DNA of 64,000 bases from Phycisphaerae bacterium (lineage in GTDB: Bacteria; Planctomycetota; Phycisphaerae; UBA1845): positions 56,192-120,191 of the forward strand of contig DAOQSN010000007.1 of the NCBI GenBank assembly GCA_035356615.1, given 5' to 3'. Below the pieces are notes generated by a model. That model made no database searches. It saw only the letters and a list, made by a program, of their open reading frames with translations, and was not told the origin of the DNA. This document shows positions 48,385 to 57,050 of the stretch, piece by piece. The position numbers were made by a program, and so were the translations under genes. Numbering within the stretch: position 1 is the stretch's first letter; every line of letters begins with the position of its first letter.

Positions 48385-49989
48385 CTACGCCCCCACCTGC
48401 CGCACGGCGTCGATCACCGTACCGTCAACCCACTTAATGACCGCCACGACCTTCTCCCCGAACTTCGGCCGTGCCGGCGCGCCGCCGCACATACTGTCGA
48501 TTTCCTTCTTCAGATCATGAATCGAGCGGATCGGCAGGTCGGACCCCTTGACCGCATCAATGAGGTCCTGCCGGCGCGGGTTGATGGCGATACCGCGCTC
48601 GGTCACGATCACGTCGATCAACTCGCCGGGGCCCACAACCGTCGTCACGCGGTCGAGGATCACCGGAATGCGGTCGCGCACGGCCGGGATGGGCAGGATG
48701 ACGCACGGGCTGGACAGGCAGTTCTGCCACCCGCCGATGCCGTGCAGCAGCTTGCCATCCGAGTGGGTCACCACGTTGGCGTTGAAATCGACGTCCACTT
48801 CCGTCGCCCCGAGCACGACGGCATCGACGAACGTGGCGAAGCAGCCCTTGCCGTGCCAATTGTAACTCGTAAACGGGCTGGTGTGCACGTGGCGCGGGTT
48901 ATCGCGCATGGAGCGCACACCGTGCAGGTCGAAGGTCTGGCCGTCGAGGATGTAGTCGGTGAGCCCCTCCTCCAGCATCTGCACCAGGTACTTCGTGCTG
49001 CCGCCGCGGATAAAGCGGGCCTTGACGTTCGCCTGTTTCATGTAGTCCCGCAGGTAGATGGCGAACGCCAGGGAGGTGCCACCCGCCCCGGCCTGGAACG
49101 AGAAGCCGTCCTTCATGATCCCCGCCTCGCGGACGAAGCGGGCCGCCAGTTCGGCGATCAGCAGCCGGTCCGGGCTTTTGGTGAGCTCGGTCGTGCCGGA
49201 GATAATCTTGGCCGGGTCACCAATGCAGTCCATCACCACGACCTGATCTACACAGTTGCCCTGGATTTGCCACGGCACGCAGGGGAACGGGACGAGGTTG
49301 TCGGTCACCATGATGACCTGGTCGGCATACATGGAGTCAACCAGCCCGAACCCCAGCCCGCCGCAGGCCGAGGGCCCCTTGACACCGTTGGCGTTGCCGA
49401 ACGGATCGCACTCCGGCGCCGCCAGCACGGCGATGTCAATGTGGACTTCGCCGTCCTGCACCGCCTGCCACCGCCCGCCGTGGGAGCGCAGGACGCCGAG
49501 CCCGCGCATCTTCCCATAGGAGCAACGCTCCCCGATGGGCCCGTTCATGGAACCCTCGACGTGATGAATGACCCCGGCGTCCATCAACTCAATCAGCGGC
49601 GCGTGACAGGGGAAGCACGCGCTGGGGAACCAGATCAGGTCCTTGATGCCCAGTTCCGCCGCCGCCCGGAACAGCGGCACGGCCACCTTGTCACCATTGC
49701 GAAAGTGGTGGTGGGTGGAGATGCGCATGCCGTCGCGGACGCCGGCCTGCTGCAGGGCAACCTTGAAGGCGTCGATATTGGCGCGCTCGCCGCCGCCCTG
49801 CGTCTTGGCGTCCGCGACGACCTTGTTCCCATCAGCCGGGTAGTCTGCGCAGGACGGTACGGGCGGAGCAGCCTTGCGCCCGGTCGGCTTATACTTACCC
49901 ACGCCCTGAAACGGGACGGCCGGCTGGCCATTGACATGAGTGGGAACCAAGCGACCGGCCGCGTTCTCGACCAGTTTCATTGCCATCAC
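48385..49989 (-). CDS. citF: citrate lyase alpha subunit (citrate CoA/ACP-transferase)
   Basis: CitF-like throughout (ISTHHHFRNGD, RSHGGR, the GGLGFGLVD region). Confidence 0.85.
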   Translation of the reverse strand: MMAMKLVENAAGRLVPTHVNGQPAVPFQGVGKYKPTGRKAAPPVPSCADYPADGNKVVADAKTQGGGERANIDAFKVALQQAGVRDGMRISTHHHFRNGDKVAVPLFRAAAELGIKDLIWFPSACFPCHAPLIELMDAGVIHHVEGSMNGPIGERCSYGKMRGLGVLRSHGGRWQAVQDGEVHIDIAVLAAPECDPFGNANGVKGPSACGGLGFGLVDSMYADQVIMVTDNLVPFPCVPWQIQGNCVDQVVVMDCIGDPAKIISGTTELTKSPDRLLIAELAARFVREAGIMKDGFSFQAGAGGTSLAFAIYLRDYMKQANVKARFIRGGSTKYLVQMLEEGLTDYILDGQTFDLHGVRSMRDNPRHVHTSPFTSYNWHGKGCFATFVDAVVLGATEVDVDFNANVVTHSDGKLLHGIGGWQNCLSSPCVILPIPAVRDRIPVILDRVTTVVGPGELIDVIVTERGIAINPRRQDLIDAVKGSDLPIRSIHDLKKEIDSMCGGAPARPKFGEKVVAVIKWVDGTVIDAVRQVGA

Positions 49990-50100
49990 ACTGTGCCTCC
50001 CGGCACGTCGTCAGCTCTCGGCAGGCCCGTTACGTAGCCCCCGCGGCGGGAGGCTCCGAACGCTCGGGCCGCTAACACTGGCGCTACGGGCGAGCATCCG

Positions 50101-50469
50101 TCACGCGTTGTCAGCCAGGCGCCGAATCCGCACGGCGCTCTCATCCGCAATCCACAACTGCCCCGCGAGGGGCTCCGCCGCCAACAAGCGCAAGACCAGG
50201 TCAAACACCGCCAGTACCTGCGCTCGCGACTGGCGTGCCGCGCGCAGCACGATCACCCCCGCATCCGCCTTCGTGGATAAGCTGCGCGCGTCGGCAAAGT
50301 CGAGATCCAGAGTGACCAGCACCCGACTCTCGTGCCGGCACGCTGTCAGTAGCGCCGCATCGGGCTGTCCGACCATGTCCTGGTCCCTGACGCTCAGGGC
50401 GTCGTATCCGCTGCGCCGCAGGCGCGCAACCACCTCCACCGGGAGATTCTCATCCACCTTAAATCGCAT
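50101..50469 (-). CDS. DUF5615 (PIN-like/Mut7-C) putative toxin
   Basis: [10 protein letters not shown]...VLVTLDLDFAD pattern. The start overlaps the stop of the upstream DUF433 gene. Confidence 0.8.
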   Translation of the reverse strand: MRFKVDENLPVEVVARLRRSGYDALSVRDQDMVGQPDAALLTACRHESRVLVTLDLDFADARSLSTKADAGVIVLRAARQSRAQVLAVFDLVLRLLAAEPLAGQLWIADESAVRIRRLADNA

Positions 50470-50705
50470 CAGGCCGCTCCCGGCGCGAGGGGAACCACGC
50501 GCTCGCGCGTCAACTCCGCGGCATAGCCGACAGCCGCCTGGATGTCCTCCCGCGTCAGCGAGGGATAACTCTTTAGAATCTCGTCAACACCAACTTCGTC
50601 GGCCAGGTTGTCGAGAATCACAGAGACCGGAACGCGCGTACCCTTGATACACGCCTTCCCATGACAAATACCGGGGTCAACAGCAATCCTACCCTGCCAC
50701 TGCAT
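50469..50705 (-). CDS. DUF433 putative antitoxin
   Basis: [25 protein letters not shown]...[15 protein letters not shown] lies 8 nt upstream of the ATG at 50705. An alternative ATG at 50768 overlaps the citE stop as ATGA. Confidence 0.8.
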
Positions 50706-50764
50706 GACACGGCTCCCCGCTACGACCCAAGACGGGCGAGTGCCCGGCTCCGCCGCCGCCTCGC

Positions 50765-55595: not shown

Positions 55596-55643
55596 GTCTA
55601 CACTCCGCCCCCCGCACCCTCGCGCCCCACTGAATAGCTCCAG

Positions 55644-55796
55644 GCAATGGGAAAACCGACAGACGGAACGGGGTGGCATGGCCAAGTCCCGGCGCGCCGG
55701 GACCATGCTCTCCCCCGGTCGAACATGTGCCTGCTGCCAACGCATGCCGGCGCCTTCGGCTTGGGCATGCCACCCGCCTCCTCGTTTCCCGTTTGC
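55644..55796 (+). repeat. family-A ~150-nt quasi-palindromic element, copy 4 (dehydrogenase|hydro-lyase gap)
   Basis: GGTGGCATGGCCAAG...CCATGCTC...GCATGCCGGCGCCTTCGGCTTGGGCATGCCACC with outer arms GCAATGGGAAAAC / GTTTCCCGTTTGC. Confidence 0.9.
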
Positions 55797-55868
55797 GTGG
55801 TCCTAAACCCCGTCGTCGATCCGCAGTACCGCCCGGCAACGATCAAGGTTCCACCGCGGCCGCGTTCG

Positions 55869-57050
55869 TCACAGCTTCGCCAGGATCGCGTCCGTCATTT
55901 GTCGGGTATTGGCCGCCCCCTGCTGGAAGACACCGGGGCCGCCCGTCAGGCGCATCATGTCGTACGTCCGCACCTTGCCCTCGGCCACCACCTTCGCAAT
56001 CGCCCCGCGGATGCGCTCCGCCGTGGCCGTCTCGCCCAGATGGTCCAGCATCATGCACGCCGACAGGATCATGGCGATCGGGTTAACGATCGGCGGATCG
56101 AGCTTCTCGTACTTGGGAGCGGACCCGTGGGTCGGCTCGAACACGGCCACGTCCTTGCCGATGTTGGCGCTGCACGCAAACCCGAGCCCGCCGACCAGCC
56201 CCGCGAAACCATCGGACACGATGTCGCCGAACATGTTACCGGCCACGATCACGCCGTAGTCCTCGGGGTTCTTCGTCAGCCACATCATCTGGGCGTCAAT
56301 GTTCGTGTCCCACAACGCGATACCCGGAAACTCCTTGGCGATGATCTGCGCCTCGGAGAGCATCATCCCCGAGGTCTCCCGAATGACATTGGGCTTCTCG
56401 CAGATCGTCACACTCTTGTAGCCGAACTGGCGGGCGTGCTCGAAACCGGCCCGCACGATGCGCCGACACGCCCCGCGCGAGAAGATGCGCGTCGACACCG
56501 CCAGGTCCTCGCCCGGCACGTGCTTGAAGGCCCCCATCTTCGGGTGCGTTTCCAGCGCCGTCCGCACGTTCGCGGGCGGGTTCGTCCACTCCACCCCGCA
56601 GTACAGACCCTCGGTGTTCTGCCGGAAGATCACCACGTCCACCGGCGGCTCGAAGAAGCCGTCCCCCTGACGCCGGATGAAGTTCAGCGGATTGCCCTTG
56701 AACGACCGACAGGGCCGGACGCAGAGGTCCAGGTCGAAATGCTGCCGCATGGTCACGATCGGGCTGTAGTAGACATGCCCTTTGCCTTTCAGCGCCGGCG
56801 ACAGCTCCGCGGCCGCTTTGTCCTTGGGCTTCGAGGTGATCGCCCCGAATAGGCCGATCTTGTGCTCCGTGAGCAGATCGATCGTGCGCTTGGGCAGCGC
56901 GTTGCCCTCCTTGCACCAGAACTCCCAGCCGATGTCGCCCGGCACGTAGTTCGCCTCGAACCCCACCGCCTGCAAGACCCGCTGGGCCTCCGGCAGCACC
57001 ACCTTGCCGATCCCGTCACCCGGCATCATGACAATCGTTCGCTTCGCCAC
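55869..57050 (-). CDS. isocitrate/isopropylmalate/homoisocitrate dehydrogenase-family beta-decarboxylating dehydrogenase
   Basis: MMPGDGIGKVV, FRQNTEGLY, NMFGDIVSD. GTG at 57050 with GGAGG 7 nt upstream. Confidence 0.85.
   Translation of the reverse strand: MAKRTIVMMPGDGIGKVVLPEAQRVLQAVGFEANYVPGDIGWEFWCKEGNALPKRTIDLLTEHKIGLFGAITSKPKDKAAAELSPALKGKGHVYYSPIVTMRQHFDLDLCVRPCRSFKGNPLNFIRRQGDGFFEPPVDVVIFRQNTEGLYCGVEWTNPPANVRTALETHPKMGAFKHVPGEDLAVSTRIFSRGACRRIVRAGFEHARQFGYKSVTICEKPNVIRETSGMMLSEAQIIAKEFPGIALWDTNIDAQMMWLTKNPEDYGVIVAGNMFGDIVSDGFAGLVGGLGFACSANIGKDVAVFEPTHGSAPKYEKLDPPIVNPIAMILSACMMLDHLGETATAERIRGAIAKVVAEGKVRTYDMMRLTGGPGVFQQGAANTRQMTDAILAKL

Follow-up and report, generated by a model that had tools for sequence, protein, structure and literature searches.

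Here we describe a cluster of five enzyme genes on the minus strand of a 64,000-nucleotide stretch of DNA from a Phycisphaerae bacterium (GenBank assembly GCA_035356615.1, contig DAOQSN010000007.1, positions 56,192 to 120,191), referred to below as the window, with a G+C content of ~67%. The cluster encodes a beta-decarboxylating dehydrogenase, a fused aconitase-family hydro-lyase, a MmgE/PrpD-family protein, a CitD-CitE fusion and a CitF-type subunit, and there is strong evidence that these five genes are one conserved functional module whose grouping goes beyond chance. We tentatively propose, with somewhat less than even confidence, that the module acts on C7 homologues of citrate and provides a coenzyme A (CoA)-free 2-oxoadipate/homocitrate route that is probably catabolic.

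Results

Five enzyme genes that stay together across phyla

In the direction of transcription, the cluster begins with a dehydrogenase of the isocitrate dehydrogenase/isopropylmalate dehydrogenase (IDH/IPMDH) family (55869..57050; Pfam Iso_dh, E 8e-75), followed by an aconitase-family hydro-lyase of 658 amino acids in which the large and small parts are fused (53619..55595; Pfam Aconitase, E 4e-106, and Aconitase_C), a MmgE/PrpD-family protein (52230..53603; PF03972, E 1e-66, and PF19305, E 5e-45), a fusion of CitE with an N-terminal CitD, the acyl carrier protein (ACP) of such lyases (50765..51964; Pfam ACP, E 7e-15, and HpcH_HpaI, E 4e-53), and a CitF-type ACP-transferase, the lyase alpha subunit (48385..49989; Pfam CitF, E 8e-135). 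Between citDE and citF, on the same strand, lie genes for a DUF433 protein, a putative antitoxin (50469..50768, or with its start at 50705; Pfam DUF433, E 6e-25), and for a DUF5615/PIN-like (Mut7-C) protein, a putative toxin (50101..50469; DUF5615, E 2e-21, and PIN_10, E 3e-7); the stop of the former overlaps the start of the latter at 50469, which together with the domains corresponds to the layout of a type II toxin-antitoxin pair. A preliminary description of the window had listed these five co-oriented enzyme genes and the pair, and Pfam and NCBIfam searches placed each of them where that description had put it or a few codons away.

The reading frame of the dehydrogenase extends without a stop as far as 57350, but homologues support GTG at 57050 as its start, and the CitD-CitE fusion starts at 52048 in public gene calls of an identical contig, as against 51964 here. 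Intergenic gaps of ~270 nt separate the dehydrogenase from the aconitase gene and the PrpD-like gene from citDE. Two public metagenome assemblies contain the identical stretch, one on an ENA contig of 137 kb and the other on a JGI contig of 56 kb.

For the comparison across genomes, 16 PrpD-like proteins were aligned and used to scan one genome per GTDB species, which returned more than 585 relatives; the best 80 loci were examined by tblastn with the window proteins, and all their open reading frames (ORFs) were clustered to seek shared neighbours. The preliminary description had raised the possibility that the genes are not syntenic in related genomes; against this, all five enzyme genes were contiguous in 49 of the 80 loci, which belong to other species and to several phyla. 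The order found in the window (IDH-Acn-PrpD-CitDE-CitF) recurs in six loci from Phycisphaerae and relatives, and the order PrpD-Acn-IDH-CitDE-CitF in 43 loci from Terriglobia, other Acidobacteriota, Thermoanaerobaculia, Gemmatimonadota and Longimicrobiales. Loci without the complete set were mostly contigs ending within the cluster; a few (L007, L008, L010, L020, L024, L038, L041 and L076) had a partial set despite full flanks, and the neighbours in the partial-cluster loci appear unrelated. The PrpD-like gene always adjoined aconitase and/or lyase genes. That adjacency is kept across phyla despite the rearranged order is strong evidence for one function.

Identities to the window proteins in other phyla amounted to 55-63% for the PrpD-like protein, 52-58% for the aconitase, 55-61% for CitDE, 68-75% for the dehydrogenase (Acidobacteriota and Gemmatimonadota) and 65-73% for CitF, the latter ranging from 65 to 77% in the syntenic loci overall. 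PrpD-like relatives named Phycisphaerae or Planctomycetota were 66-82% identical, and 55-82% was the range across phyla.

In 55 of the 80 loci (e.g. L004:9332-9985 and L029:9306-9893), the gene immediately preceding that of the PrpD-like protein encodes a degenerate HD-domain protein of ~185 amino acids, with the motif LLADVGK replacing HD. It is 70-83% identical among Phycisphaerae, its Pfam HD match is weak, its AlphaFold model has a pLDDT of 88, and Foldseek returned generic HD folds (best YhaM, E 3e-4); its gene was not found in the window. Besides this protein, no gene family was common to more than 21 of the 80 loci, indicating that a transporter, a regulator, citC, citX and citG are not linked to the cluster.

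The toxin-antitoxin pair was considered as a member of the system and rejected: it stands between citDE and citF only on its own contig and at that position in none of the 80 other loci, and we regard it as a lineage-specific insertion (L010 has a similar DUF433/PIN-like pair at another position). Of the block originally listed, the five enzymes hold together and the toxin-antitoxin pair is foreign to the system; a sixth gene, that of the HD-domain protein, belongs to the cluster in other genomes.

A Lys4-type homoaconitase signature in the fused aconitase

The fused aconitase, whose translation contains both the HVMTHDNT and the ASDSHSN motif, scores 748.2 bits against TIGR00139, the equivalog model of fungal Lys4 homoaconitase (cutoff 529.9), and the next model reaches 390 bits. 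Scores for leuC (196 versus a cutoff of 560) and leud (78 versus 246) were far under their cutoffs, as were those for the AcnA and AcnB models. A HMMER search of 1.84 billion representatives returned full-length fused relatives at 42-57% identity, including a protein of the aphelid Amoeboaphelidium, from the fungal lineage (P0364), which is 47% identical over its full length and 720 columns. The substrate loop of the small domain reads NLNTDGIYGKEYTYKE in the window aconitase and NLNTDGIYPGKYTYKD in P0364, and DNLNTDGIY..YTYK is common to both. The best PDB match is the large subunit of the homoaconitase from M. jannaschii, and bacterial members of the family carry the NCBI name 'homoaconitase'; we know of no report of an aminoadipate lysine pathway in the bacteria so annotated. 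The resemblance to fungal-type homoaconitase rather than LeuCD or AcnA, noted in the preliminary description, is borne out by these scores and by the aphelid relative, and the fused aconitase is most likely a fungal-type homoaconitase, with the predicted reaction cis-homoaconitate <-> homoisocitrate.

Fungal homoaconitases interconvert only homoaconitate and homoisocitrate, another enzyme (an aconitase) forming homoaconitate from homocitrate, a split that the authors of that work liken to the methylcitrate dehydratase and aconitase of the methylcitrate cycle (PMC3556520). With a Lys4-type enzyme limited to one half-step, a partner hydro-lyase is required, and the neighbouring PrpD-family protein is the obvious candidate.

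Contigs with genes for remoter members of this aconitase family (L084, L087-L091 and L094-L096) were also inspected. In L084, L088, L095 and L096 the aconitase is tightly paired, often with overlapping genes, with the same dehydrogenase subfamily, the paired dehydrogenases being 55-69% identical to that of the window and having the same loop; the L088 relative passes TIGR00139 with 557 bits. L087 and L088, from bacterial metagenome-assembled genomes with 71% G+C, additionally have adjacent genes resembling those for lysine-ketoglutarate reductase (LKR) and saccharopine dehydrogenase (SDH) 5-7 kb from the aconitase/dehydrogenase pair (L088:13872-16474 and L087:18998-21267). In L088, the LKR-like gene scores 288 bits with the LKR domain of human AASS versus 63 bits with yeast Lys1, and the SDH-like gene 307 bits with yeast Lys9/saccharopine reductase; LKR-like and Lys9/SDH-like neighbours are those of the saccharopine pathway of lysine metabolism, as judged from these matches. 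The same five-gene cluster is present in L090. In L089 (6984-13685) the order is HD-domain protein, a fused aconitase paralogue (isopropylmalate isomerase/HacA-like), a 109-aa ORF, the Lys4-type aconitase and CitF, with no PrpD, CitDE or dehydrogenase within 10 kb; the HD-domain protein thus accompanies this variant as well, and the second aconitase may be a non-orthologous replacement of PrpD.

The next-nearest fused aconitase family, represented by L094, is of the HacAB type (TIGR01343, 463 bits versus a cutoff of 386), and its gene is flanked by a homocitrate-synthase-like gene on one side and by LysJ-like and LysK genes on the other, i.e. it belongs to a LysW-type aminoadipate lysine operon. 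Together, these contexts connect this aconitase family, as well as the family nearest to it, with homoaconitate and with the metabolism of lysine and aminoadipate. In L091 (260-7480), genes for a Lys2-like adenylation-thiolation-reductase, a Lys4-type aconitase and a Lys9-like protein stand side by side. Because of its 24% G+C and its grouping with a eukaryotic sequence in a neighbour-joining tree, which carries no support values and serves for description only, this contig is probably fungal, and we did not use it as bacterial evidence; if it is bacterial, it would represent a fungal-type lysine pathway in a bacterium.

A Lys12-like loop and an NADP-type motif in the dehydrogenase

The best NCBIfam models of the dehydrogenase are those of methanogen homoisocitrate dehydrogenase (HICDH), AksF2 (255 bits versus a cutoff of 540) and AksF (253 versus 500). 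The other models were also under cutoff (iso_homocit_dh 114 versus 680, leuB 152 versus 353, the best IDH 223 versus 510, and tartrate dehydrogenase too); the library holds no model of fungal HICDH. With leuB and leuC both far from their thresholds, the dehydrogenase and the hydro-lyase do not group with LeuB and LeuCD, an outcome that the preliminary description had left open.

The substrate loop reads YYSPIVTMRQ in the window dehydrogenase and YSSPIVALRR in yeast Lys12 (P0121), as opposed to RS(L/V)NV in true IDHs and GAIRY in Thermus HICDH, whose Arg85 equivalent is Val here. At the position of Asn115 (E. coli numbering), which all true IDHs in the alignment retain, Ile is found, as in Lys12; the equivalent of Ser113 is retained. 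With SPIV in place of RS(L/V)NV, the Asn that binds the gamma-carboxylate of isocitrate is absent, exactly as in fungal HICDH. The orthologues keep this loop as well as a family-specific insertion that precedes it.

Furthermore, the window dehydrogenase carries the motif HGSAPKY. In Lys12, Thermus HICDH and the NAD-IDH 6lky this motif is HGSAPDI, Asp-Ile being the pair found in NAD-dependent enzymes of the IPMDH/HICDH type. The K and Y are conserved in at least 95% of the cluster orthologues; in relatives that are not part of the five-gene cluster the two positions are taken by His-His (L088) or Arg-His (L095). Chen, Greer and Dean reportedly found in 1995 that K344 and Y345 are the NADP determinants of E. 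coli IDH and bind the 2'-phosphate, and from the KY motif we predict that the dehydrogenase uses NADP(H). The motif suggests a subfamily of NADP(H)-using dehydrogenases of the homoisocitrate type, of which we know no earlier description.

The PrpD-family protein and the lyase subunits

The PrpD-family protein has the MmgE/PrpD domains, as had been described, and falls outside the PrpD equivalogs, whose models give 97, 86 and 66 bits versus cutoffs of 950, 575 and 458. Its nearest PDB structures are IDS-epimerase (115 bits) and cis-aconitate decarboxylase (CAD; 104 bits), 2-methylcitrate dehydratase PrpD reaching at most 60. Measured against the catalytic residues of human CAD, as reportedly listed by Chen et al. 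in 2019, the equivalents of Asp93, His103, His159, Lys207, Lys272 and Tyr318 are kept, and those of Thr97 and His277 are changed to Ile and Glu, respectively. Conserved residues of the CAD type are expected to be general to the PrpD family. The NCBI model PRK09425 describes PrpD as a bifunctional 2-methylcitrate dehydratase/aconitate hydratase.

As to the lyase, the CitF and CitD-CitE families named in the preliminary description are present, and what did not stand is the status of the three as citrate-lyase equivalogs: citF is narrowly under its cutoff (TIGR01584, 489.3 bits versus 501.45), and citE (TIGR01588, 289 versus 443) and citD (47.6 versus 63.5) are clearly under theirs. CitF matches the PDB entries 2hj0 (385 bits) and 1xr4 (376 bits). 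The best PDB matches of the CitD-CitE fusion, which is kept in all syntenic loci, are CLYBL and malyl-CoA lyases, and the CitE part also matches the model of RipC, a lyase of itaconate degradation, with 161 bits. Residues R18-S19-D20 do not vary among 50 orthologues. S19, at which the Pfam ACP match begins, we take by an alignment of our own to be the serine bearing the phosphoribosyl-dephospho-CoA prosthetic group (E. coli Ser14).

Other features of the window

Directly upstream of the cluster, on the minus strand, a PEP-CTERM protein (57404-58327) and an NfnAB-like pair (58400-60865), consisting of a sulfide/dihydroorotate-dehydrogenase-like FAD/NAD subunit and a GltA-type NADPH subunit, were identified with Pfam and NCBIfam; both were considered as operon members and rejected, as they are not syntenic elsewhere. 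Downstream of the cluster, the same searches found an ArsP-type permease and trpC on the opposite strand. Promoter and terminator scans gave no signal above shuffles, and the sole match of an Rfam scan was a tRNA gene (61417-61503, minus strand, 55 bits), which overlaps the 5' part of the plus-strand ORF at 61360-62472. The cytochrome c554-like gene at these latter coordinates is truly shorter, with 226 amino acids in public gene calls.

Farther away, ~24 kb from the cluster, a di- or tricarboxylate transporter of the DASS/CitMHS family is encoded at 22612-24246 (plus strand); it is unlinked and could import a carboxylate substrate. An acetyl-CoA hydrolase/transferase with a fused C-terminal GNAT acetyltransferase domain is found at 1816-3831 (minus strand), and near it a thiolase-like gene and a ChsH2-type OB-fold gene (5800-8675). 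There are two genes of the class-I Glu/Gln-tRNA synthetase family, at 12699-14219 (plus strand) and 42590-44932 (minus strand); the second had been listed with 780 amino acids and a long N-terminal extension, and public gene calls give 565-610.

Discussion

A possible homocitrate-cleaving route

The preliminary description had suggested a scheme in which a 2-oxoacid and CO2 give an iso-acid, then (homo)citrate, then acetate and a shorter 2-oxoacid. We keep this scheme as the best explanation of the cluster and narrow it to homocitrate; what we infer is which substrates are used, what the PrpD-like protein does, how specific the lyase is and in which direction the module runs. The dehydrogenase would catalyse, with NADP(H), the reaction 2-oxoadipate + CO2 + NADPH <-> homoisocitrate, the Lys4-type fused homoaconitase would interconvert homoisocitrate and cis-homoaconitate, and the PrpD-family protein, as an Fe-S-independent hydro-lyase, would interconvert cis-homoaconitate and homocitrate. 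Following the mechanism of the citrate-lyase family, CitF would swap the ACP thioester from acetate to homocitrate, turning acetyl-ACP into homocitryl-ACP with release of acetate, and CitE would split homocitryl-ACP into acetyl-ACP and 2-oxoglutarate. CitD-E and CitF would thus constitute an ACP-based homocitrate lyase independent of CoA and ATP, and the net reaction would be 2-oxoadipate + CO2 + NADPH <-> 2-oxoglutarate + acetate + NADP+.

Regarding direction, a catabolic one appears more likely, i.e. a reversed upper alpha-aminoadipate pathway that would carry 2-oxoadipate derived from lysine or aminoadipate into central metabolism. We favour it because the cluster has a CitDEF-type lyase where the biosynthetic operon of L094 has a homocitrate synthase, because the KY motif is of the NADP type whereas the DI of biosynthetic HICDHs (Lys12 and Thermus HICDH) is of the NAD type, and because the lysine genes near the L088 relative resemble the catabolic LKR/SDH type. 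These three arguments are indications rather than proof. The NADPH-generating NfnAB-like pair upstream would be in line with reductive carboxylation, a weak support given that the pair is not syntenic elsewhere.

Several observations weigh against a catabolic homocitrate route. From textbook values of citrate analogues we roughly estimate the net reaction to be near equilibrium, so that either direction is possible, and for aerobic Terriglobia it would be unusual to commit a catabolic pathway by reductive carboxylation. In the 80 loci, neither a lysine-catabolic gene nor a transporter or regulator is conserved beside the cluster, and the conserved HD-domain protein has no part in the scheme. 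As for the lyase, the genes on which the making and charging of a CitD-type ACP depend, citC (ligase), citX and citG (both for prosthetic-group synthesis), were found neither among the 39 window ORFs scanned with Pfam (those outside ~29.4-37.3 kb) nor as conserved genes in the flanks of the 80 loci, and CitF lies nearly at the cutoff of true citrate lyase (489 versus 501), making citrate a possible substrate. The PrpD-like protein appears to be nearer to a decarboxylase and an epimerase than to a dehydratase, and over its whole sequence the dehydrogenase stands at 32% identity to fungal HICDH, no closer than it does to Thermus HICDH or to an NAD-IDH. Finally, the assignment of substrates comes from homology and motif matches.

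Other readings of the cluster

The same substrates could be used in the biosynthetic direction, which we consider rather unlikely. CitDE/CitF would then condense acetyl-ACP and 2-oxoglutarate to homocitrate, replacing the acetyl-CoA-dependent homocitrate synthase, and PrpD, homoaconitase and dehydrogenase would go on to yield 2-oxoadipate for lysine or another aminoadipate-derived product. The resemblance to Lys4 and Lys12 fits this equally well, high conservation without an adjacent regulator or transporter looks like housekeeping biosynthesis, and oxidative decarboxylation would, by our own estimate, pull the near-equilibrium condensation. L091 does place a Lys4-type gene beside biosynthetic genes resembling Lys2 and Lys9, but being probably fungal, with its low G+C and its grouping with a eukaryotic sequence, it has little bearing on bacteria, and L094, which is clearly a biosynthetic operon and bacterial, uses a canonical homocitrate synthase. 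The HICDHs of biosynthesis carry DI and not KY, all CitDEF-type complexes that to our knowledge have been characterised (citrate lyase and citramalate lyase) act as lyases, and the diaminopimelate route is expected in these Gram-negative lineages. Were the module instead to act on citrate and isocitrate, which seems to us improbable, it would be a segment of the tricarboxylic acid (TCA) cycle independent of ATP and CoA (2-oxoglutarate + CO2 + NADPH <-> isocitrate <-> cis-aconitate <-> citrate <-> oxaloacetate + acetate) that could serve as a reductive branch, as a route of glutamate fermentation or, reversed, as an acetate-condensing oxidative branch. The citF score barely under its cutoff, the KY motif, of the NADP type and typical of bacterial IDH, the retained Ser113 equivalent, the NfnAB-like pair upstream and the description of PrpD as an aconitate hydratase in PRK09425 would all suit it, yet carriers among Terriglobia and Gemmatimonadota are expected to have a normal TCA cycle, one ordinary aconitase would render the pair of PrpD and Lys4-type enzyme needless, and CitE and CitD are well under the citrate-lyase cutoffs. 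The Asn115 equivalent is Ile as in Lys12, and the aconitase is of the Lys4 type, characterised fungal homoaconitases interconverting, within the homocitrate series, only homoaconitate and homoisocitrate (PMC3556520).

Another citrate analogue is a distinctly unlikely substrate in our judgement, be it of a citramalate/3-methylmalate/2-oxobutyrate series, 2-methylcitrate or an alkyl-citrate, with the PrpD-family protein maybe acting as a decarboxylase or epimerase. Citramalate lyase is indeed a CitDEF-type complex and the CitE part matches RipC, and the hydrophobic Ile and Val of the dehydrogenase loop recall engineered IPMDH-like IDH and HICDH variants, although authentic Lys12 has the same Ile-Val loop. 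Likewise, the PrpD-like protein is closest to CAD and IDS-epimerase and keeps most CAD residues, but Glu and Ile stand at the positions of His277 and Thr97. The LeuB, LeuCD and citramalate-related models are far under cutoff, and homoaconitate and lysine metabolism are indicated alike by the Lys4-type aconitase, by its neighbour family and by their contexts in the genomes. That the genes have no common function, leucine- or TCA-type genes merely standing beside an unrelated citrate lyase, we regard as highly improbable: the ~270-nt gaps, the toxin-antitoxin insertion and the partial sets in eight loci with full flanks would be expected of such an arrangement, but the five genes are adjacent across phyla despite their rearranged order and none of the five belongs to a curated housekeeping family. 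Both the curated model scores and the synteny led us to reject a reading as plain leucine or TCA genes beside a citrate lyase.

Relation to known pathways

All parts of the cluster belong to known families, and its pathway logic parallels that of the fungal aminoadipate pathway, of the PrpD/aconitase pair and of the reductive TCA branch. In the fungal upper alpha-aminoadipate pathway (Lys20/21, aconitase, Lys4 and Lys12) one finds the same Lys4-type homoaconitase, the same type of dehydrogenase loop and an isomerisation split between two enzymes; the cluster differs in having the ACP-dependent lyase CitD-E/CitF in place of homocitrate synthase, a PrpD-family protein rather than an aconitase as the first hydro-lyase, and a dehydrogenase with KY rather than DI, and in being bacterial, operonic and probably reversed in direction. 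With citrate lyase CitDEF (EC 4.1.3.6) and the citramalate lyase of glutamate-fermenting clostridia it shares CitF, CitE and a CitD with the conserved serine, and the same acetyl-ACP cycle would be expected. Unlike in these enzymes, CitD is fused to CitE, the subunits are under the equivalog cutoffs and citC, citX and citG are not linked, and the cluster adds a dehydrogenase and hydro-lyases, which are unneeded in citrate fermentation.

The 2-methylcitrate cycle also pairs an Fe-S-independent MmgE/PrpD enzyme (PrpD) with an aconitase-family enzyme (AcnB/AcnA), one half-step each. In the cluster, however, the PrpD member lies outside the PrpD equivalogs, nearer to CAD and IDS-epimerase, and is teamed with a homoaconitase of the Lys4 type; methylcitrate synthase and methylisocitrate lyase are missing, and the iso-acid would go to a beta-decarboxylating dehydrogenase. 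The same formal logic is found in the reductive TCA branch (IDH, aconitase and ATP-citrate or citryl-CoA lyase), which likewise leads from a 2-oxoacid, CO2 and NAD(P)H over an iso-acid and a tertiary hydroxy acid to a C2 unit and a shorter 2-oxoacid, whereas the substrates of the cluster are probably one CH2 longer, free acetate would be released by an ACP enzyme with no ATP or CoA, and no autotrophic cycle is involved. The Thermus/archaeal LysW-type aminoadipate pathway and the 2-oxoacid elongation of methanogens (AksA, HacAB and AksF) resemble the cluster in that AksF and AksF2 are the best models of the dehydrogenase and the L094 neighbour family is of the HacAB type, but the window proteins are under the AksF and HacA cutoffs, the aconitase is Lys4-type, and neither LysW-pathway genes nor homocitrate synthase are linked.

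The preliminary description had remarked that PrpD next to citrate lyase is not a standard operon. In agreement with this, we found no description in the full-text literature of the operon, of citrate lyase, PrpD and homoaconitase together, or of a 'homocitrate lyase'. Four elements of the combination, of which we likewise found no description, are new: the CitD-CitE fusion, a CitDEF-type complex that would replace homocitrate synthase, a PrpD-family protein as the partner of a Lys4-type enzyme and a dehydrogenase with an NADP signature.

Implications

If true, the homocitrate route would add to the known enzymes a homocitrate lyase, a PrpD-family homocitrate dehydratase/hydratase and an NADP-dependent homoisocitrate dehydrogenase, and the hypothesis is directly testable with five recombinant proteins. 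It accounts for the annotation of 'homoaconitase' in bacteria by NCBI, and on the side of engineering it would offer CoA-free chemistry that changes the chain length of 2-oxoacids. More broadly, we consider it possible, though on balance doubtful, that Acidobacteriota, Gemmatimonadota and Phycisphaerae share a widespread and hitherto unrecognised central route in which the upper alpha-aminoadipate pathway operates in reverse, needing neither CoA nor ATP nor oxygen. In that case, fungal Lys4 may have its nearest prokaryotic relatives, and possibly its source, in the bacterial members of the operon, a matter of interest for how the lysine pathway of fungi arose. The route would join C6 and C5 2-oxoacids, and with them the carbon of lysine and aminoadipate and the TCA cycle, in very abundant bacteria of soil and sediment.

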